Virus record (IMG/VR): IMGVR_UViG_2703718778_000001
Location: 1 to 5,567 of that record
Direction: 5' to 3' (one strand)
Source: a virus
Lineage: Duplodnaviria; Heunggongvirae; Uroviricota; Caudoviricetes
Length of the DNA: 5,567 nt
In this document: piece by piece, positions 1 to 5,567 of the stretch
Layout: the number at the start of each line of letters is the position of its first letter
How positions within the stretch are numbered: the first letter of the stretch is position 1
Position numbers and translations under genes: made by a program
Notes under the pieces: generated by a model
The model's input: only the letters and a program-made list of their open reading frames with translations
What the model was told of the DNA's origin: nothing
The model's database searches: none

Positions 1-367
1 CCTGCGCAACGCAGAGGGAACAGAGCTGGCAGCAGTGACCGAATTTCTGGCGTTCATTTCACGCAATATGCATGACGAAAGCCCGGGCAATTCACTGACC
101 ATATGGTGCAAGGGCGCATCCTTCGATTTCCCGATCCTGAAATCCGCCATAACACGCACAGCCGGAGAAAAAAGCATTCCGTGGTGCTACTGGAACGAGC
201 GCTGTATGCGCCCGCTTATCGCCATGGCTGAGTCAACGGGCTGGAAAATGCCAGGCAGATCAGGAAAAGAGGCCATTGCTCACACCGCACTAAGCGACGC
301 CATTTACCAGGCAAAGATCGTGTCAGAAATCTGGCAGCGCTTCACAACACCATTCCTGAACATATGA
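1..367 (+). CDS. DnaQ/DEDDh-like 3'-5' exonuclease, C-terminal part (5' end lies outside the window)
   Basis: The reading frame is open from position 2 to the TAA/TGA stop at 365-367, so the listed GTG at 35 is probably internal and the gene starts upstream. The C-terminal region carries an H-x-A-L-x-D-A motif (AHTALSDAIYQ) resembling the Exo III motif of DnaQ/RNase T-type exonucleases. Family assignment is from motif recall only. Confidence 0.55.
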   Translation, partial: LRNAEGTELAAVTEFLAFISRNMHDESPGNSLTIWCKGASFDFPILKSAITRTAGEKSIPWCYWNERCMRPLIAMAESTGWKMPGRSGKEAIAHTALSDAIYQAKIVSEIWQRFTTPFLNI

Positions 368-599
368 GGTGAAGCCATGGTCGCAATCCTGAATATGCGT
401 TGCCGCCCCCCCTGAACGTGGAAACAAAAGCCCGCACGTCTCTGCGCTTATTTCGCAACGGAGCGCGGAATTTTTCACGCATAAAGCCCCACGACTACCT
501 GGTCATAAGAATCGGTTTTCGCTGGCGATTACTGAGCAAAAACAACGGGAAGTCATGGGATTTATTAACGCACGAAACCTATAACAGAGAGGCCGCGTT

Positions 600-1574
600 A
601 TGAGCGAAAAACTGTTATCCGGCACACCGCTGAAATGGGTGGGCGGAAAAAACCGCATCATGGACACACTGAAGGCGCACCTGCCAGAAGCTGACTGCCT
701 GGTTGAGCCGTTCGTGGGTGGCGCATCGGTATTCATGAACACCCGTTACAGCCGCTGCATCCTTGGAGATTCCAACGGTGCGCTGATTAATTTCTGGCGG
801 GCAGCACGGGACAACACCGACAGCCTGATCGATGAGGCAAAAGACCTGTTCCTGGAACATAACAACAGGGCTGACTATCTCGCCATCCGCAACACCTTTA
901 ATGCAGAGAATCATGCATTCCTGAGCACGGGAATAAGCGACCGTCGGAAACTGCGACTGGCCGCCATGTTTTTGTACCTCAACCGACACTGTTTTAACGG
1001 CCTGTTCCGCGTGAATGGAAAAGGCGATTTTAACGTTCCTTTCGGCAGCTACAGCAAACCTTATTTTCCTGAGCGGGAGATCCGCGCATTTGCAGACAAG
1101 GCAAACAGCACCCGAACACTGCTTGTTCATGGCGATTTTCGAAAAACGCTGAGCTGTGCCAGCCACCTGTTCAGCATGGGTAACACGCTTTGCGTGTACT
1201 GCGATCCCCCTTACCTGCCATTCAGTGGCCGGGACAATTTCACCGCCTATGGAAAACCATTCACGAAGGACGACCACATTCGCCTGAGAGCAGCGCTTGA
1301 CCGCCTTTCACAGGAAACGGGCGGCATGACCAGCATCACCATCTCCAATTCCGACACACCGGAAACCAGACGCATTTATCAGGGTTACCGGATGAACTGC
1401 ATACAGGCACCACGAAGCGTTGGCGCAAGAACCAGTGAACCCGCAATGGAAGTTATCGCCACCCTGAAGCAGTGCGACACCTGCGGTCGCCATGGCGGTG
1501 GCTGGTGCCCGGACTGCGGCCCGGCGACGGGAGATGCAACGTACAGCGCGATGTTTACCTCTGCTCACCCGTGA
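600..1574 (+). CDS. dam: Dam-family N6-adenine DNA methyltransferase (probably GATC-specific), with a ~35-aa Cys-rich C-terminal tail
   Basis: ATG at 600 is preceded by AGAGAGG (585-591). The protein has the Dam hallmarks LKWVGGK near the N-terminus, CLVEPFVGGASVF, FLYLNR..FNG..R.N..G.FNVPFG.Y.KPYFPE, and the catalytic DPPY motif (VYCDPPYLPFS), co-linear with E. coli Dam as I recall it. The extra tail contains CDTCGRHGGGWCPDCG (CxxC-x7-CxxC). Confidence 0.92.
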   Translation: MSEKLLSGTPLKWVGGKNRIMDTLKAHLPEADCLVEPFVGGASVFMNTRYSRCILGDSNGALINFWRAARDNTDSLIDEAKDLFLEHNNRADYLAIRNTFNAENHAFLSTGISDRRKLRLAAMFLYLNRHCFNGLFRVNGKGDFNVPFGSYSKPYFPEREIRAFADKANSTRTLLVHGDFRKTLSCASHLFSMGNTLCVYCDPPYLPFSGRDNFTAYGKPFTKDDHIRLRAALDRLSQETGGMTSITISNSDTPETRRIYQGYRMNCIQAPRSVGARTSEPAMEVIATLKQCDTCGRHGGGWCPDCGPATGDATYSAMFTSAHP

Positions 1575-1609
1575 ATAACCAGATGAATCAGCAACACAGG
1601 AGTCAACCG

Positions 1610-1855
1610 GTGAATAACAAAAGCACGCAGCAATCAATCGTCGTTTCAGCACTGAGATATCTGGCCTGCATCAAACAACAGGAAGCAAGAGAGGCGGTGG
1701 AGAAGCGGGATTCGGGGATATTTGTGGCACTTGGACACAGCTATACGGCAATGCTTGCCAGCAGGTCCGCTGAATTCATTGAGGAGCAGCAACGGGAAAT
1801 TGAGGCACTTAAAACCGCAGCAAACAAGGAACGGAGAGGAAGGGGCGAACAATGA
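1610..1855 (+). CDS. hypothetical small protein (~81 aa) with a charged, coiled-coil-like C-terminus
   Basis: GTG at 1610 is preceded by AGGAG (1598-1602) at 7-nt spacing; an in-frame ATG at 1583 without a Shine-Dalgarno is the alternative start. The listed ORF start at 1472 lies inside dam and is rejected. The TGA stop at 1853-1855 overlaps the next ATG (ATGA). Confidence 0.5.
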   Translation: MNNKSTQQSIVVSALRYLACIKQQEAREAVEKRDSGIFVALGHSYTAMLASRSAEFIEEQQREIEALKTAANKERRGRGEQ

Positions 1856-2070
1856 TCCAGGAATCAACCATTATCCGGTTCACAGCCAACGGCCGTCAGT
1901 ACGAAGTCGACGAAAGCCTGATTGACCCGGGCATGACACGCCAGGACTCACGCAATCCTGAGATGCATCACATCCGCCTTATCAACGGTTCGCACTTCTG
2001 CGCCACAAACGTGGAAGAAGTACGCGTGCTGACAGCAACACGCAATACGGGAGGTAAAGCATGGCAGTGA
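1852..2070 (+). CDS. hypothetical protein (72 aa)
   Basis: ATG at 1852 is preceded by GGAGAGGAAGGGG and overlaps the upstream stop as ATGA, suggesting translational coupling. Its 3' end overlaps the next gene's start by 10 nt. No recognisable motif. Confidence 0.55.
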   Translation: MIQESTIIRFTANGRQYEVDESLIDPGMTRQDSRNPEMHHIRLINGSHFCATNVEEVRVLTATRNTGGKAWQ

Positions 2071-2411
2071 TTTATATCGCCGGTCCCATGACCGGATGCA
2101 AAGACCACAACAGGACGGCATTTTGCGCGGAGGACCTGAAACTTCGGTGCGCCGGAAACATCGTTCTTAATCCTGCCGTGCTGCCTGACGGATTAAGCCA
2201 GCAGCAGTACATGAGCATTTGTATTCCGATGCTCATGTGTGCCGATGCCATTTACTTACTGGATGGATGGGAAGAGTCCGCTGGCGCACGGGCTGAGTAC
2301 GCAATGGCACTCAAGCTGAACATGCCGGTGTCATTCCCGGAAAATCGGGCGGCCGGCGAAACTGTCGCACAGCTGCTTGGCAAATCAAAAGCCGCACAGG
2401 CGACTGAGTAA
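2061..2411 (+). CDS. DUF4406 / nucleoside 2-deoxyribosyltransferase-like (NDT-fold) protein
   Basis: ATG at 2061 is preceded by GGGAGG (2049-2054). The N-terminal YIAGPMTG motif resembles the conserved YxAGP motif of the nucleoside 2-deoxyribosyltransferase-like superfamily. The protein is small (116 aa) and standalone. Family assignment is from motif recall and needs an HMM check. Confidence 0.65.
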   Translation: MAVIYIAGPMTGCKDHNRTAFCAEDLKLRCAGNIVLNPAVLPDGLSQQQYMSICIPMLMCADAIYLLDGWEESAGARAEYAMALKLNMPVSFPENRAAGETVAQLLGKSKAAQATE

Positions 2412-2909
2412 CCGACCGGAGATCGAAACATGATTGCGCGAAGAGCTGCCAACCGCCTCACAGGCTTTATTCCAGGCAAGATTAATCATGCACTCCATGA
2501 TGGGACTGTCACTTTCCTCAACAAAGGAGAGGCGCGCAATCATGCATTCCTTACTAATCACATGGCGCTGACTGATAAGGCGCTGGTAACTGACTGCCTG
2601 CCATTCAGCCTTTTCAGCCCTGCGTTCAAAACTGGCAGCCATGCACTGCCAGAGCAGAAACAGAACCACACTGAAGAGTACCAACACAACAAAATCACAC
2701 AGGACAAACGCCGCAACACCAACCAGAAAGGCGCTGATTCGCAGAGCAGCAGAAACGCGTCGGTGAAACACACATGTAATACGTTCAAGCCAGTAGCTGT
2801 ACCACAGGTCAAAAAGAATGTCGTAATCAGAAGGGAGCTTATCACTCATCAGAAACACCCCGCGTATGCAGACAATCACCCGTTGCCAGGTGATATTAAT
2901 TCGCCACAT
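2385..2909 (-). CDS. candidate hypothetical membrane protein (one predicted transmembrane helix); low-confidence gene
   Basis: The minus-strand ORF is open from 2933 to 2385, with ATG candidates at 2909 and 2849 and only weak Shine-Dalgarno support. It has a ~30-aa hydrophobic segment (ISAFLVGVAAFVLCDFVVLVLFSVVLFLLW). Over the first ~168 codon triplets of the region (2430-2933), first-codon-position composition is more gene-like on the minus strand (G about 32%, T about 21%) than on the + strand shadow frame (G about 25%, T about 10%), by manual count. Its 3' end overlaps the DUF4406 gene convergently by 27 nt. Confidence 0.3.
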   Translation of the reverse strand: MWRINITWQRVIVCIRGVFLMSDKLPSDYDILFDLWYSYWLERITCVFHRRVSAALRISAFLVGVAAFVLCDFVVLVLFSVVLFLLWQCMAASFERRAEKAEWQAVSYQRLISQRHVISKECMIARLSFVEESDSPIMECMINLAWNKACEAVGSSSRNHVSISGRLLSRLCGF

Positions 2910-3032
2910 TCTAACCACATCAGCACGCAACACAAAAACCGCTTGCCAGCGCTCGTCGTGTCAGGTTACATTTCCGCTGCACCTCATAAAACGGGTGCCG
3001 GGATTGGAACCCCGCCGACTAGCAAAGCGCAC

Positions 3033-3053
3033 AACCGCGCCAGCGGTTTTTTT
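3033..3053 (+). terminator. candidate intrinsic terminator: short GC stem-loop followed by a T7 run
   Basis: AACCGC (3033-3038) pairs with GCGGTT (3043-3048) around a GCCA loop, then TTTTTTT spans 3047-3053. The U-tract follows the stem only on the + strand. The stem is short (4 G-C plus 2 A-U pairs), so strength is uncertain. Confidence 0.35.
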
Positions 3054-3106
3054 GTGCGTACTGTATCGCCACGTCTTTTTCGCGTCAGAATAATGGCGGG
3101 GCGTAC

Positions 3107-3130
3107 GGGGCCGACTTCGGTCGGGCCGGG
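3107..3130 (+). other. GC-rich stem-loop with a UUCG tetraloop (structured RNA or DNA element)
   Basis: CCGAC (3111-3115) pairs with GTCGG (3120-3124) around TTCG (3116-3119), with flanking G/C pairs able to extend the stem across one mismatch. It is followed by GGGTTCTTT. It sits in the region with no convincing + strand gene. Confidence 0.4.
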
Positions 3131-3232
3131 TTCTTTGCTAGCCGGTAGTTCCAACCCTGTACGTCTCGCCACCCTGAGCTTGGAACCTCGGGTTGGTGAG
3201 TTTTCAGAACTTACTAGCAAAGAGGCCACACC

Positions 3233-3460
3233 ATGGCAAACCGCAAGCAACAGCGCGCCCGCGCTGAGCGTCTTCACATCCGCACTGAAATCAACCGCAG
3301 ACTTTTCCGCGCCTCACGCGTCGCGCAAATCATGCACATCAATATGCTGCATGAGCGCACTCACGCTCTGTCAAACCGTTACTGTGCCGCTGTTTTCAGC
3401 TACCTGGCGGATGATCTCGCGGAGCTGCAGGACCTTATCAACCAGCAACACCACCACTAA
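3233..3460 (+). CDS. hypothetical small basic protein (75 aa)
   Basis: ATG at 3233 is preceded by AGAGG (3221-3225) at 7-nt spacing. The N-terminus is strongly basic (MANRKQQRARAERLHIRTEINRR) and the protein ends in HHH. Its position two genes upstream of the replication gene matches the small-ORF cluster of P2-like phages. Confidence 0.55.
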   Translation: MANRKQQRARAERLHIRTEINRRLFRASRVAQIMHINMLHERTHALSNRYCAAVFSYLADDLAELQDLINQQHHH

Positions 3461-3528
3461 ACAACATCCTGAAGCCATCCCGCACCCGTGCGCGGGAGGC
3501 TTCCGCACGTCTGTTACCGGAGGTTCTC

Positions 3529-3945
3529 ATGAAGAGCGTTAAGGGACTTTCAGATATTCAGGACTTTTTTAACTGGATGTGGGCGGTGGATCCCCTGCTG
3601 GCTTCCCGCCTGAACAACTGGCACGACTACTACCGCCGCGCCTGTAAACAGGCCGCCCGCAGCATCACCACATACGGGGATTTCTCCTTCACCGTTGACG
3701 GTCGTTACCGCGTGGACGTGAAAGGTGACGGTGATGGCTTTGGTTTATTTCACATCAACGGCACCGACAGTACCGCCATCAGCTGGTCATCGTCAGAGAT
3801 GGCACTGGTTCTGGAAATGACAACCCACAGCGTGGCCGTGAAAGGCATATACACCGCAGAAGACTTTATCGGTGAATACCAGCGCCTTCTCGTGCTGTAC
3901 CGCGCGGCGTTTCAGGAGGTCACTGGCGGGGAGTACGACGCATGA
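3529..3945 (+). CDS. hypothetical protein (138 aa)
   Basis: ATG at 3529 is preceded by GGAGG (3519-3523). The TGA stop at 3943-3945 overlaps the ATG of the downstream replication gene (ATGA at 3942-3945). No recognisable motif. Confidence 0.65.
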   Translation: MKSVKGLSDIQDFFNWMWAVDPLLASRLNNWHDYYRRACKQAARSITTYGDFSFTVDGRYRVDVKGDGDGFGLFHINGTDSTAISWSSSEMALVLEMTTHSVAVKGIYTAEDFIGEYQRLLVLYRAAFQEVTGGEYDA

Positions 3946-5567
3946 GTGACCGCAATGCACAGCTGGCGTACCCGTGGAACGCACCGCTACCGGTTATCGA
4001 TCCTGAAACGTTCGGCAGAGCACAACCAACCGCATTACGCCAGGCCATTCAGAGCTACATCAACGAGGACATTCGCATTGATGCCAGACTGGATGAAGAA
4101 ACCGTCTCCTTCCTGACAAACACAGACGAAGGCAAGCGAATTAATTCGCATCTTCACCACGACGAAGAGCGTCGGGTCAGACTGGAAAAACTGGCGAAGC
4201 ACAAACGCGAGAATCCGCCCACGGTGGTATCGGAAGCCATGGCAGAACTTCGCGCCCTGCCCTCGTTTCTTGGCAACGTGCTCATTCGTGATCTGGCGCG
4301 TTTAAACCGCAAACAACAAAGCGCCCGCAATGAAGGCGTGAAAAACAACAACACTCACGTGGCCGATAACTTCGTTCGCCGTGGACTGCGCACACGCCTG
4401 AAACGCATCGAACAGGTGAATGAATGCTTCGCCACGACGGCATTCAAAGCCACCGCAGCGCGTCATCGCCTTGATGAATTACTCATGCTGCCACAACTCA
4501 ACCGTGATCAAATTCAGCGCCTTGCCACACTAACGGCGGCGGCATTTTCCACCGAACTGGAACGCAGATGTGATGAAGTTACTGAGCGGACAGGAAAAGG
4601 CGACGATAACCTGTTTACCTGGTTGCTGACTTACCAGCAGCTGGCGCGCATGGCAATAAAACTGGGCGTGAACCCACCATACTGGCCGTCACTCGAGATC
4701 AGACGTGACCGCCGCACGGCACCAGACCCTGAACTGGTACCGGGCGCGGTAATGCGTATCACCTGCGCCACCTGGTGGAACAACCAGCTGCGCCACCTCG
4801 CTGATCTCTGGCGGGAGGAATTACTGCGTGCCGCCGGAAGAGTATCGCGCAAGGCATCCCCCTACATCAGCCATGAGTCACTCCAGGAATTCCGGGAGAA
4901 ACGCCAGCGCACCCGTGATTTTCTCAAAAGCTGGGACATTGAAAACGAAGACGGTGAACGCCTGAGCCTGGAGGACGTGTACTGGTCAGGGCTGGGGAAT
5001 CCGCGCAACCGCCGCAACGAGATGATGGCCTGCGTCAGAGGGATGGAACAGGTCGCCGAATCGCGTGGTGACTCCGCGTTCTTCGTGACAGTGACCTGCC
5101 CTTCCCGCTTTCACAGCGTAAACGAGGACGGCAGCCTGAACCCGAAATACAACGGTGCCACCGTGCGCGATGCCAGTGATTATCTGGTTTACGACGTCTT
5201 TGCAGCTGCAAGAAAAAAACTCAACAAAGAAGGCCTGAGCTGGTACGGGGTGCGCACCGTTGAGCCACACCATGACGGCACACCGCACTGGCACATGCTG
5301 GTATTCACCGCCCCGGACAATGAAGAACGCATCATTGAAATCATGCGTGACGCAGCAATCAAATCAGATCGCGCAGAACTGGGGAATGATATTTCTCCGC
5401 GCTTCAAATGCGAAAAAATCGACCCGGCAAAAGGCACACCGGCAAGCTACATCGCAACCTATATTGGCAAGAACCTGGACGCCAGCACCTTTCACGACAA
5501 TGACCCGAAAACCGGCAAACCTTACGCCGATAAAGAATCGGGAAAAACCATGGCGGAAACCGTGGAA
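3942..5567 (+). CDS. A: P2 gpA-family rolling-circle replication initiation endonuclease, N-terminal ~542 codons (3' end lies outside the window)
   Basis: The ORF starts at ATG 3942, preceded by GGGGAG, and by manual translation has no stop through the window end at 5567. It is absent from the supplied ORF track only because it has no stop in the window. It contains an HUH-type motif (PHWHMLVF, codons at 5283-5306) typical of the HUH endonuclease superfamily to which P2 gpA belongs. Overall similarity to P2/186 A protein is from recall. Confidence 0.88.
   Translation, partial: MSDRNAQLAYPWNAPLPVIDPETFGRAQPTALRQAIQSYINEDIRIDARLDEETVSFLTNTDEGKRINSHLHHDEERRVRLEKLAKHKRENPPTVVSEAMAELRALPSFLGNVLIRDLARLNRKQQSARNEGVKNNNTHVADNFVRRGLRTRLKRIEQVNECFATTAFKATAARHRLDELLMLPQLNRDQIQRLATLTAAAFSTELERRCDEVTERTGKGDDNLFTWLLTYQQLARMAIKLGVNPPYWPSLEIRRDRRTAPDPELVPGAVMRITCATWWNNQLRHLADLWREELLRAAGRVSRKASPYISHESLQEFREKRQRTRDFLKSWDIENEDGERLSLEDVYWSGLGNPRNRRNEMMACVRGMEQVAESRGDSAFFVTVTCPSRFHSVNEDGSLNPKYNGATVRDASDYLVYDVFAAARKKLNKEGLSWYGVRTVEPHHDGTPHWHMLVFTAPDNEERIIEIMRDAAIKSDRAELGNDISPRFKCEKIDPAKGTPASYIATYIGKNLDASTFHDNDPKTGKPYADKESGKTMAETVE

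Follow-up and report, generated by a model that had tools for sequence, protein, structure and literature searches.

The stretch of DNA analysed here, called the window in the following (5,567 nucleotides), belongs to a P2-like prophage, of which it forms the early region, and shares 97.6% identity with an E. coli chromosome. The near-identical prophage L001 contains int, C and cox-side early genes, gpA, portal, terminase and P2 capsid genes, and its annotation bears out the P2-like early operon setting proposed in a previous sequence-only reading. Positions 1-2411 carry six closely packed ORFs on the plus strand. Among them are the three genes on which that reading was built, encoding an exonuclease, a Dam methylase and an NDT-like enzyme, and their identities and positions hold, with matches to PF16473, to PF02086 and TIGR00571, and to PF14359 and phrog_355, respectively, at scores far beyond chance. 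The three genes are not consecutive as had been stated, because a ParE-like ORF is situated between the exonuclease and Dam genes and two small ORFs separate dam from the NDT-like gene.

Two of the ORF junctions are ATGA overlaps (600-603 and 1852-1855), a third is a 10-nt overlap (2061-2070) and the other gaps do not exceed 35 nt. Ribosome-binding sites are seen at overlapping or abutting ORFs. The sole good promoter-like site on the plus strand of L001 is Pe-like and is situated in the interval that separates the C repressor gene from the first early gene, and a scan of L001 and the window gave no convincing plus-strand terminator from this early promoter to the isrK terminator. Given overlapping start and stop codons and the lack of an intervening plus-strand terminator, the co-transcription claimed earlier is plausible, with the transcription unit itself deduced from these features. 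Most likely, the six ORFs are expressed as one transcript after infection or lytic induction and stay repressed in the lysogenic state. The window does not contain tRNA genes, and PADLOC gave no matches for its non-methylase genes. With 16 GATC sites against 19.4±4.4 expected, the window is unremarkable; neither depletion nor clustering of GATC was found, and there is thus no sign of selection on this motif.

The window opens with the C-terminal 121 codons (1..367, plus strand) of a gene for a DEDDh 3'-5' exonuclease of the Rv2179c-like type that starts further upstream. The fragment matches PF16473 (E=2.6e-22, profile positions 82-177 of 177) and phrog_255 ('exonuclease'), and the full gene in L001 (14798-15367, 189 aa, annotated as '3'-5' exonuclease') matches PF16473 with E=4.1e-49. 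The ExoII (ASFDFP) and ExoIII (HTALSD) motifs are present in the window translation and ExoI (IDTET) in the N-terminus of the L001 protein, so that profile and all three motifs agree on family membership. A related domain forms the C-terminal part of lambdoid RecE-N/Rv2179c proteins of about 820 aa (phrog_2082, phrog_20376). These are large single fusions encoded in recombination operons and lack a methylase domain, unlike the prophage genes. With only 38% identity between the exonuclease domains, we rejected the idea that the prophage exonuclease is a recent derivative of such a fusion.

The second ORF (400..603, plus strand) starts with TTG400 and encodes a ParE-like protein of 67 aa (PF24732, E=4.7e-18, 65.4 bits with a cut-off of 24.4; phrog_1525) that had been missed in the sequence-only reading. 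The profile match places it in the ParE-like domain family, and the RefSeq annotation of L001 calls it 'ParE family toxin-like protein'. Its stop codon overlaps the Dam start in the ATGA at 600-603. A poly-C tract of seven residues at its 5' end (406..412, plus strand) varies in length among near-identical prophages, with C7 in the window and L082, C8 in L001, L003 and L005 and C9 in L002; the C7 version puts the ATG at 395 into another reading frame. According to the annotation and the visible ORFs, no cognate antitoxin gene adjoins the ParE-like gene, its neighbours being the exonuclease gene upstream and dam downstream.

The third ORF (600..1574, plus strand) encodes an orphan Dam-family N6-adenine DNA methyltransferase of the D12 class (324 aa). 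It matches PF02086 (E=6.3e-52, 177.2 bits, cut-off 22) and TIGR00571 (230.7 bits, cut-off 114.85), and its best PADLOC match is 'orphan methyltransferase'. The D12 fold, the SAM-binding motif and DPPY are shared with E. coli Dam and with orphan GATC methylases of phages, among which T4 Dam and DpnM serve as solved relatives. An alignment with E. coli Dam (2g1p, E=2.8e-53) includes the SAM-binding motif EPFVGGASVF and the catalytic CDPPYLP. K9, N120, L122, R124, N126, P134 and DPPY are retained, while Y119 is replaced by F and R137 by S. We take K9, Y119, N120, L122, R124, N126 and P134 to be the GATC-reading residues of E. coli Dam, and on this basis GATC specificity is predicted for the prophage enzyme. 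The two proteins resemble each other in the GATC-reading residues of the beta-hairpin and in having no partner endonuclease, but the prophage protein differs by 11 residues inserted around positions 107-117 and by an extra C-terminal mini-domain with four cysteines (CDTCGRHGGGWCPDCGPATGDATY; 1473..1544, plus strand). Against the model for the housekeeping E. coli enzyme (NF008152), it reaches 220.2 bits with a cut-off of 441 and is thus a member of the Dam family, not the host orthologue. The Cys4 tail matches positions 516-556 of the RecE/ExoVIII model NF007259 as well as phrog_20376 ('exonuclease'). The same motif (CxxCG…GGGxCPDCG…GDATY) directly precedes the exonuclease domain of the lambdoid proteins of about 820 aa mentioned above. 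In our first locus set, only four of 63 Dam ORFs carry this tail.

Two small ORFs follow on the plus strand, neither of which has a Pfam match. The first (1610..1855) is hypothetical in L001, encodes 81 aa (start GTG1610) or 90 aa (start ATG1583), is preceded by AGGAG at a distance of 7 nt and matches phrog_9338 weakly. The second (1852..2070, 72 aa) is joined to it by the ATGA overlap and matches phrog_3459 (E=2.1e-33). The last gene of the run (2061..2411, plus strand) encodes the NDT-like protein, a DUF4406 protein of 116 aa. The run is ended by a convergent minus-strand ORF (2385..2933, 174-182 aa, hypothetical in L001; phrog_6315, E=3.3e-54) that encodes a hydrophobic segment and overlaps the 3' end of the DUF4406 gene by 27 nt; a terminator-like hairpin is located on the minus strand at 2405-2390. 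Further downstream, all on the plus strand, are the isrK sRNA (2979-3053; RF01394, 67.9 bits) with a terminator at 3033-3048 and the C4 antisense RNA (3089-3176; RF01695, 84.2 bits), both above the Rfam gathering score and each with a promoter-like site. They are followed by an ORF for a 'derepression protein' (3233-3460, phrog_3688) and one for a 138-aa protein (3529-3945, phrog_3237), identified by RefSeq names in L001, and by the N-terminal part of a P2 gpA-type replication endonuclease gene (3942..5567; 'replication endonuclease' in L001) that runs off the window and whose translation starts MSDRNAQLAYPWNAPLPV.

The DUF4406 protein matches PF14359 with E=6.6e-33 and falls into phrog_355 ('nucleoside 2-deoxyribosyltransferase'). 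It exhibits the flavodoxin-like NDT fold shared by NDT, DNPH1 and MilB, albeit in a small format, as DUF4406 comprises about 100 residues compared with 135-160 in the NDT superfamily (DNPH1/Rcl, MilB, NDT and phage DmtZ). The catalytic triad of the NDT family consists of Tyr, Asp or Asn, and Glu (PMC12884076). Y5 in strand 1 and E79 in helix 3 are placed as expected and are invariant in 36 homologues, and the S73-x5-E79 arrangement resembles the Ser-Glu spacing of DNPH1. The middle position is less clear, as both N37, which never varies, and residue 52, an S here where most homologues have D, come into question. Pfam matches are limited to PF14359 and a weak one to PF09152, and PF05014 is not matched. 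A sequence link to solved NDT, DNPH1 or MilB structures was rejected because phmmer, a profile search against the PDB and hhalign did not reveal any; for DNPH1, the hhalign probability was 0.8% with an approximate query. DUF4406 is therefore linked to NDT and DNPH1 by fold alone. DmtZ, an NDT-like enzyme of phage origin, has dAMP N-glycosidase activity. It is covered by no Pfam model (PMC12884076), and for this reason it was rejected as a DUF4406 member and serves as a precedent only. We found no literature specific to any DUF4406 protein. By analogy with DNPH1, MilB and DmtZ, DUF4406 would most likely be a small N-glycosidase of the NDT superfamily with free (deoxy)nucleoside monophosphates as substrates, which would make it an enzyme of the nucleotide pool and not a partner in DNA modification.

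A fold related to both TIR and NDT proteins also brings immune signalling into play. The exonuclease could degrade messengers consisting of small DNA or oligonucleotides, for example retron msDNA or cyclic or linear oligonucleotides, and DUF4406 could hydrolyse a signalling nucleotide, such that the region would counter nucleotide- or DNA-based defence. Dam and the exonuclease RecE do both act on retron msDNA, but in doing so they trigger retron-Sen2 and are not inhibitors of the defence (bioRxiv 10.1101/2020.06.22.160242). The Thoeris inhibitor Tad3 occurs once among the neighbours of DUF4406. However, the NDT-family matches of DUF4406 outscore its TIR matches, neither the exonuclease nor the ParE-like protein nor DUF4406 matches a PADLOC or other anti-defence family, and outside the lineage of the window an exonuclease is never found near DUF4406. 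We consider such a counter-defence function very improbable.

The closest known arrangements are present in the Klebsiella phages ST16-OXA48phi5.4 (Reipivirus) and 3LV2017 (Reginaelenavirus), both of which share the order int, C, cox, DUF4761, exonuclease, ParE_like, Dam and gpA. They encode an Rv2179c-like exonuclease (35% identical to that of the window), a ParE-like protein of 75 aa (62%, as calculated for gp10 of ST16-OXA48phi5.4) and a D12 Dam with the same Cys4 tail (51%), and the stop codon of the ParE-like ORF overlaps the Dam start just as in the window. By contrast, gpA is only 32.5% identical and is directly abutted by dam, and DUF4406, the two small ORFs, the convergent minus-strand gene and the isrK/C4/derepression unit are all lacking. 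The ST16-OXA48phi5.4 exonuclease differs from that of the prophage in lacking the ExoI Glu, and the role of the exonuclease may thus not be catalytic everywhere. Escherichia phage P88 (Xuanwuvirus) and related P2-like prophages of E. coli represent the opposite case. They share the cox, DUF4761 and DUF4754 backbone and the isrK/C4-'derepression protein'-gpA block (86% DNA identity over 2913-3451), but the slot is filled with wHTH, Ead/Ea22, membrane and lipoprotein genes and contains none of the exonuclease, ParE-like, Dam or DUF4406 genes. This wholly different cargo in the same place agrees with the earlier proposal that the genes are accessory and do not serve core replication. The slot is hypervariable: apart from P88 with its unrelated cargo, the prophage of strain Bongo lacks the ParE-like gene, DUF4406 and the minus-strand ORF.

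Conservation across related phages was assessed with 138 P2-like loci anchored on gpA. Dam is encoded upstream of gpA in 49 of these, adjoining it in about half of the 49. An exonuclease occurs only where Dam is present (4/49 versus 0/89 loci without Dam, p=0.015) and the ParE-like gene behaves likewise (7/49 versus 0/89, p=5e-4), although these counts ignore shared ancestry and gene order is conserved in P2-like phages anyway. Among 84 IMG/VR loci anchored on the ParE-like gene, 59 from Peduoviridae of Klebsiella, Salmonella and E. coli show the order exonuclease-ParE_like-Dam. This cassette spans three clusters of ParE-like proteins with 60-66% mutual identity, uncorrected for shared ancestry, in addition to the isolates ST16-OXA48phi5.4 and 3LV2017. 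The methylase position can be exchanged: phage SI7 carries a C5 methylase and five loci a gene with a PAPS-reductase domain. The census numbers are approximate since the HMM for C5 methylases is insensitive (it missed the SI7 enzyme) and the gene caller gives false calls. The trio of exonuclease, Dam and DUF4406 is confined to the lineage of the window, with 27 of 5,426 E. coli genomes and 10 of the 84 ParE-anchored loci; DUF4406 itself was detected in 30 of the 5,426 genomes and marks one rare lineage. The co-occurrence of the three named genes across related phages thus does not extend beyond this lineage, and of the module originally proposed, the association of exonuclease and Dam survives while the NDT-like gene drops out. 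Judged from these comparisons, the true conserved unit is exonuclease-ParE_like-methylase rather than exonuclease-Dam-NDT, with the ParE-like protein as its best conserved member (62% identity). We found no literature dealing specifically with a P2-like exonuclease/Dam module.

DUF4406 is present in 442 phage records from many hosts, where it stands alone in the early regions of many unrelated phages. Neighbouring genes were called with a greedy ORF caller into which the anchoring DUF4406 ORF was forced, a procedure that yields some false calls such as a spurious 370-aa ORF at 2430-3542. Neighbours include a PF04447 dATP/dGTP pyrophosphohydrolase and dCMP deaminase, and PHROG families join DUF4406 to MazG-like and hydrolase domains. 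Not one of 668 gene positions within four genes of DUF4406 in other lineages is occupied by an exonuclease, which together with its occurrence mostly in unrelated phages argues against membership in the module. DNA methylases are enriched directly beside DUF4406 (9/173 positions at ±1 versus 6/792 at positions 5-10, p=3e-4), but not significantly so when compared with positions three to four genes away (p=0.12), and some 80% of the lineages with DUF4406 lack a methylase at a distance of up to two genes. An unbiased Pfam census of 50 dereplicated lineages gave at least three methylases at ±1, at least three at ±2 and at least one at ±6-7, and five of seven isolated phages have one within 2.6 kb. 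In a local HMM census, methylases became gradually rarer with distance instead of being strictly adjacent, and an obligate pairing was rejected. DUF4406 hence shows no more than a tendency to share a neighbourhood with DNA methylases, and none towards exonucleases. The enrichment leaves room for a functional link, which we nevertheless discount.

These observations bear on the possibility of a true DNA-modification or anti-restriction module in which the exonuclease, the ParE-fold protein, an interchangeable enzyme (Dam, C5 methylase or PAPS-reductase-like) and DUF4406 act together, the ParE-fold protein as regulator or partner of the enzyme that follows it and DUF4406 by clearing, for example, S-adenosylhomocysteine or methylated dNMP. 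In the cassette loci, the slot 3' of the ParE-like gene always holds an enzyme of the DNA-modification type, and translational coupling exists both to D12 Dam (window and ST16-OXA48phi5.4) and to the C5 methylase of SI7. The ParE-like gene is also biased towards Dam-containing loci. Furthermore, methylases from four different families are located next to DUF4406 in a number of phage groups (N15 gp57-gp58, H66, PF05869 Dam in lambdoid loci and the Dam-DUF4406 pair of L084), but the 'cytosine methyltransferase' next to DUF4406 in Alfacinha1 was not confirmed by Pfam. In Sortsne, ECML-606-1, Scapp and ST405-OXA48phi1.2, no methylase is annotated next to the homologue of the ParE-like protein, and a general role as methylase partner was rejected outside P2-like phages. 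With the uncorrected ancestry and the weak adjacency of DUF4406 to methylases also speaking against it, we regard joint action of all these components as unlikely. A related reading, to which we assign a low but somewhat better chance, takes the cassette with its swappable enzyme as a dedicated modification or anti-restriction unit with the ParE-fold protein as regulator or partner, not toxin; DUF4406 would then be a methylase-associated NDT-fold N-glycosidase that may clear, e.g., S-adenosylhomocysteine or methylated (d)NMPs and may have joined the cassette in E. coli and Salmonella lineages.

In many P2-like phages the cassette position is directly 5' of gpA, often with dam adjoining gpA, and this can also be read as pointing to support of phage replication or host takeover instead of defence evasion. 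The ParE-like protein might poison host gyrase or replication at induction, the exonuclease might process DNA ends or proofread, and Dam might tune gpA/ori or mismatch repair. The ParE-family Pfam assignment without an antitoxin candidate nearby and expression presumably only once the C repressor is lifted would fit. On the other hand, the ParE-like protein is short (about 67 aa), and any toxicity would be putative. Moreover, 89 of the 138 P2-like loci do without Dam and nearly all without the exonuclease, such that P2-type replication can proceed without any of these genes. We therefore hold this alternative to be quite unlikely.

Taken as a whole, the region is probably the accessory tail of the early (Pe) operon, with an exonuclease-ParE_like-modifying-enzyme cassette and DUF4406 as later cargo. 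It would represent the non-essential distal part of this operon in a P2-like (Peduoviridae) E. coli prophage, and the conserved core of exonuclease, ParE-like protein and DNA-modifying enzyme, here an orphan Dam, would be typical of a subgroup of enterobacterial Peduoviridae that carry it directly ahead of the gene for the replication initiator gpA. As the E. coli host is usually Dam-positive itself, the benefit of a phage-encoded Dam is not obvious. Conceivably, it methylates GATC on fast rolling-circle products that host Dam would leave under-methylated, and fully methylated progeny DNA might then be protected from GATC-cleaving restriction and evade host functions that depend on hemimethylation. 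The DEDDh exonuclease and the ParE-fold protein would be co-inherited partners of Dam, while DUF4406 and the two tiny ORFs would be later mosaic additions. An anti-restriction function of the genes is conjecture.

Apart from the conserved exonuclease-ParE_like-methylase cassette, the region is ordinary mosaic phage cargo. All genes fall into already annotated families, the same arrangement under the same names already exists in RefSeq E. coli genomes, and an orphan Dam before gpA is common in P2-like phages. Redefining the conserved unit and recognizing that its methylase slot is exchangeable are modestly useful. With its NDT/DNPH1-like fold and intact Tyr and Glu, the uncharacterised and widespread DUF4406 offers a cheap biochemical target. 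Should the cassette indeed be one functional unit, it would introduce a new class of accessory proteins for phage DNA-modification systems.

The whole window is matched at 97.6% identity by the E. coli chromosome NZ_AP045176, where its counterpart belongs to a P2-like prophage adjoining rraA, with int and a C-type repressor gene on one side of the region and gpA (the P2-type replication endonuclease), portal, terminase, GPO scaffold, P2-family capsid and lysis genes on the other. Within positions 1-2411, six plus-strand ORFs emerged from an ORF listing combined with domain searches. These are the C-terminal 121 codons (to 367) of an Rv2179c-like DEDDh 3'-5' exonuclease (PF16473, E=2.6e-22), a ParE_like ORF of 67 aa (400-603; PF24732, E=4.7e-18), a D12-class Dam of 324 aa (600-1574; PF02086, E=6.3e-52; TIGR00571, 230.7 bits), two small ORFs without Pfam match, ORF81 (1610-1855) and ORF72 (1852-2070; phrog_3459), and a DUF4406 protein of 116 aa (2061-2411; PF14359, E=6.6e-33; phrog_355, 'nucleoside 2-deoxyribosyltransferase'). 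RefSeq names in the prophage are '3'-5' exonuclease', 'ParE family toxin-like protein', 'DNA adenine methylase' and 'DUF4406 domain-containing protein'. The exonuclease, Dam and NDT-like (DUF4406) genes of the sequence-only reading are thus real; they are not the consecutive trio described there, as ParE_like, ORF81 and ORF72 intervene.

The ParE_like stop overlaps the Dam start in an ATGA at 600-603, ORF81 and ORF72 share another ATGA at 1852-1855, ORF72 runs 10 nt into DUF4406, and the remaining junctions are gaps of no more than 35 nt, with a Shine-Dalgarno-like sequence in every case. In L001, a near-identical prophage locus with RefSeq annotation, the stretch separating the repressor gene from the first early gene holds the top plus-strand promoter-like site (TTGACA-18-TATCCT), and scans of L001 and the window found no convincing plus-strand terminator upstream of that of isrK. 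Tight junctions, an early promoter-like site and the lack of a convincing terminator before isrK make co-transcription from the early promoter plausible, and the genes would probably be expressed together, early after induction.

When the comparison was anchored on ParE_like, the immediate upstream neighbor was the exonuclease and the immediate downstream neighbor a D12 Dam in 59 of 84 loci, an order common to three ParE_like clusters with mutual identities of 60-66%. The isolated Klebsiella phage ST16-OXA48phi5.4 resembles the window in carrying exonuclease–ParE_like–Dam, there followed by gpA. Its identities to the window are 35% for the exonuclease, 62% for ParE_like, 51% for Dam and 32.5% for gpA, which makes ParE_like, overlooked in the sequence-only reading, the best-conserved cassette member. 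In phage 3LV2017 the order is exonuclease, Dam, gpA, with the first two adjacent. Salmonella phage SI7 has a C5 cytosine methylase after ParE_like, with a D12 Dam just upstream as well, and five Klebsiella-type P2-like loci carry a PAPS-reductase-domain gene in place of Dam (coordinates of non-Dam genes in this position: L453:4969-6116 and L475:4849-6142). The slot after ParE_like is exchangeable among DNA-modification-type enzymes. L084, a Salmonella/Shigella-type relative, contains ParE_like, Dam and DUF4406 without the exonuclease (protein identities to the window: Dam 47%, DUF4406 59%, gpA 76%).

A second sample, anchored on gpA, comprised 160 P2-like loci drawn from IMG/VR and from GTDB species genomes; 4 kb or more of upstream sequence was available for 138. 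Of these 138, 49 (36%) have Dam upstream of gpA, and in about half of the 49 the two genes adjoin. The exonuclease was found in four, ParE_like in seven and DUF4406 in three of the 138, invariably together with Dam (Fisher p=0.015, 5e-4 and 0.04, respectively, uncorrected for shared ancestry). Positions 1-2411 were found in only 30 of 5,426 complete E. coli genomes; the trio is complete in 27, two carry just the exonuclease and Dam, and one carries the exonuclease alone.

The fourth sample, 287 DUF4406-anchored loci obtained with four seeds and dereplicated to 50 or 87 lineages, consists mostly of non-P2 phages, in which DUF4406 is located downstream of replication genes and neighbored by DUF977, HTH, Ead/Ea22, NinB/NinG, SSB, PF04447 pyrophosphohydrolase and dCMP deaminase genes. 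As an alternative reading of the window's genes, a set serving replication or host takeover has a low probability in our view. DNA methylases of four families occur at 9/173 positions ±1 from DUF4406, 5/171 at ±2, 8/324 at ±3-4 and 6/792 at 5-10 (±1 versus 5-10, p=3e-4; ±1 versus ±3-4, p=0.12), and the exonuclease was absent from all 668 positions within four genes of DUF4406. From the four samples it follows that the proposed three-gene module is not supported as such. Its exonuclease–Dam part is supported as a putative co-inherited cassette.

All three Exo motifs are present in the exonuclease, with ExoI read from the L001 N-terminus, outside the window. In ST16-OXA48phi5.4 (L452:3693-4259) the IDxET of the window's lineage and 3LV2017 is replaced by IDLIN; the ExoI Glu is thereby lost, and the exonuclease of that lineage may therefore be catalytically dead although the cassette is retained. 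At the 5' end of ParE_like, a poly-C tract (406-412, within 395-412) is C7 in the window and L082, C8 in L001, L003 and L005 and C9 in L002. The C7 form puts the ATG at 395 out of frame and leaves TTG400 as the sole start of the ORF. The length differences may reflect slipped-strand variation, a frameshifted allele or homopolymer sequencing error.

Dam aligns to E. coli Dam 2g1p with E=2.8e-53. The SAM motif, DPPY, K9, N120, L122, R124, N126 and P134 are conserved, and Y119 is replaced by F; we take K9, Y119, N120, L122, R124, N126 and P134 to be the GATC contacts of the E. coli enzyme in Dam-DNA structures. The host Dam equivalog cut-off is not reached (220 versus 441 bits) and the top PADLOC match is 'orphan methyltransferase'. 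An extra Cys4 tail at the C-terminus (1473-1544; CDTCGRHGGGWCPDCGPATGDATY) recurs in Dam of ST16-OXA48phi5.4, in RecE-type models and just upstream of the Rv2179c domain in lambdoid RecE-N/Rv2179c exonucleases of ~820 aa (e.g. L100:1044-3518, minus strand). The motif has the look of a mobile, zinc-ribbon-like mini-domain that links methylases with exonucleases. Multicopy DNA outstrips the host Dam supply (bioRxiv 10.1101/2020.06.22.160242), so the phage enzyme would most likely methylate GATC on replicating phage DNA. The window shows neither depletion nor clustering of GATC (16 sites versus 19.4±4.4 expected). We assign a low probability to a true modification or anti-restriction cassette.

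No solved relative of DUF4406 is detectable by sequence, and no paper deals with the family. Y5, N37, S73 and E79 are invariant across 36 homologues; the strand 1 Tyr and the helix 3 S-x-G-x3-E are similar to DNPH1's Tyr, phosphate-binding Ser and nucleophile Glu, an equivalence that hhalign did not confirm. For the middle residue of the triad there are two candidates, the invariant N37 and residue 52, which is D in most homologues but S in the window. DmtZ, a phage NDT-like enzyme of different lineage with a Tyr/Asn/Glu triad, is a dAMP N-glycosidase and deoxyribose-5-phosphate transferase (PMC12884076). By analogy with its structural relatives, DUF4406 would most likely act on free nucleotides; counter-defence against nucleotide signalling is improbable. 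By tblastn the family occurs in 442 phage records from Vibrio, Gordonia, Arthrobacter, Mycobacterium, Pseudomonas and other hosts. It also forms the N-terminal domain of a 203-aa protein in phage D6 (L247:2480-3091) and many E. coli prophages and of a 303-aa protein in Acidovorax phage Alfacinha1 (L246:2501-3412). The 117-aa E. coli protein P0033 matches PF02086 and PF14359 together and probably arose by a deletion that fused Dam to DUF4406.

A minus-strand ORF (2385-2933; phrog_6315; 174-182 aa) converges on DUF4406, overlapping its 3' end by 27 nt, with a terminator-like hairpin at 2405-2390 on the minus strand. It has a long hydrophobic stretch (ISAFLVGVAAFVLCDFVVLVLFSVVLFLLW), matches nothing in Pfam or PADLOC and is a possible membrane moron or exclusion gene. 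Both it and DUF4406 are absent from the strain Bongo prophage (L241). Then follow, on the plus strand, isrK sRNA (2979-3053; 67.9 bits) and C4 antisense RNA (3089-3176; 84.2 bits), both above the Rfam gathering score and each with a promoter-like site, and the 75-aa ORF that RefSeq names 'derepression protein' (3233-3460). This arrangement (2913-3460) looks like a P1 immI-like antirepressor control unit in the P2-like early region just before gpA. A 138-aa ORF and the start of the gpA-type gene (from 3942) lie downstream. The longest ORF listed, 370 aa on the plus strand at 2430-3542, crosses the minus-strand gene, isrK, C4 and the derepression ORF, lacks a family match, is absent from the RefSeq annotation and is almost certainly spurious. 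Matches of 85% identity or more to isolated phages (P88 group) are confined to positions 2913-3460. P88 has the backbone and the isrK/C4/derepression/gpA block in common with the window, but its exonuclease–DUF4406 slot is filled with unrelated cargo. Some part of the window is matched at 80-90% identity in ~1,178 E. coli genomes.

The region is ordinary, already-annotated phage accessory cargo, and we consider it rather unlikely to be a swappable DNA-modification cassette in which a ParE-fold protein acts as partner and an NDT-fold enzyme as auxiliary. The conserved unit is exonuclease, ParE_like and DNA-modifying enzyme, in that order, which a subgroup of enterobacterial Peduoviridae carries ahead of gpA. 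Mosaic additions of the E. coli lineage are DUF4406, ORF81 and ORF72, the convergent gene and the sRNA/antirepressor unit.
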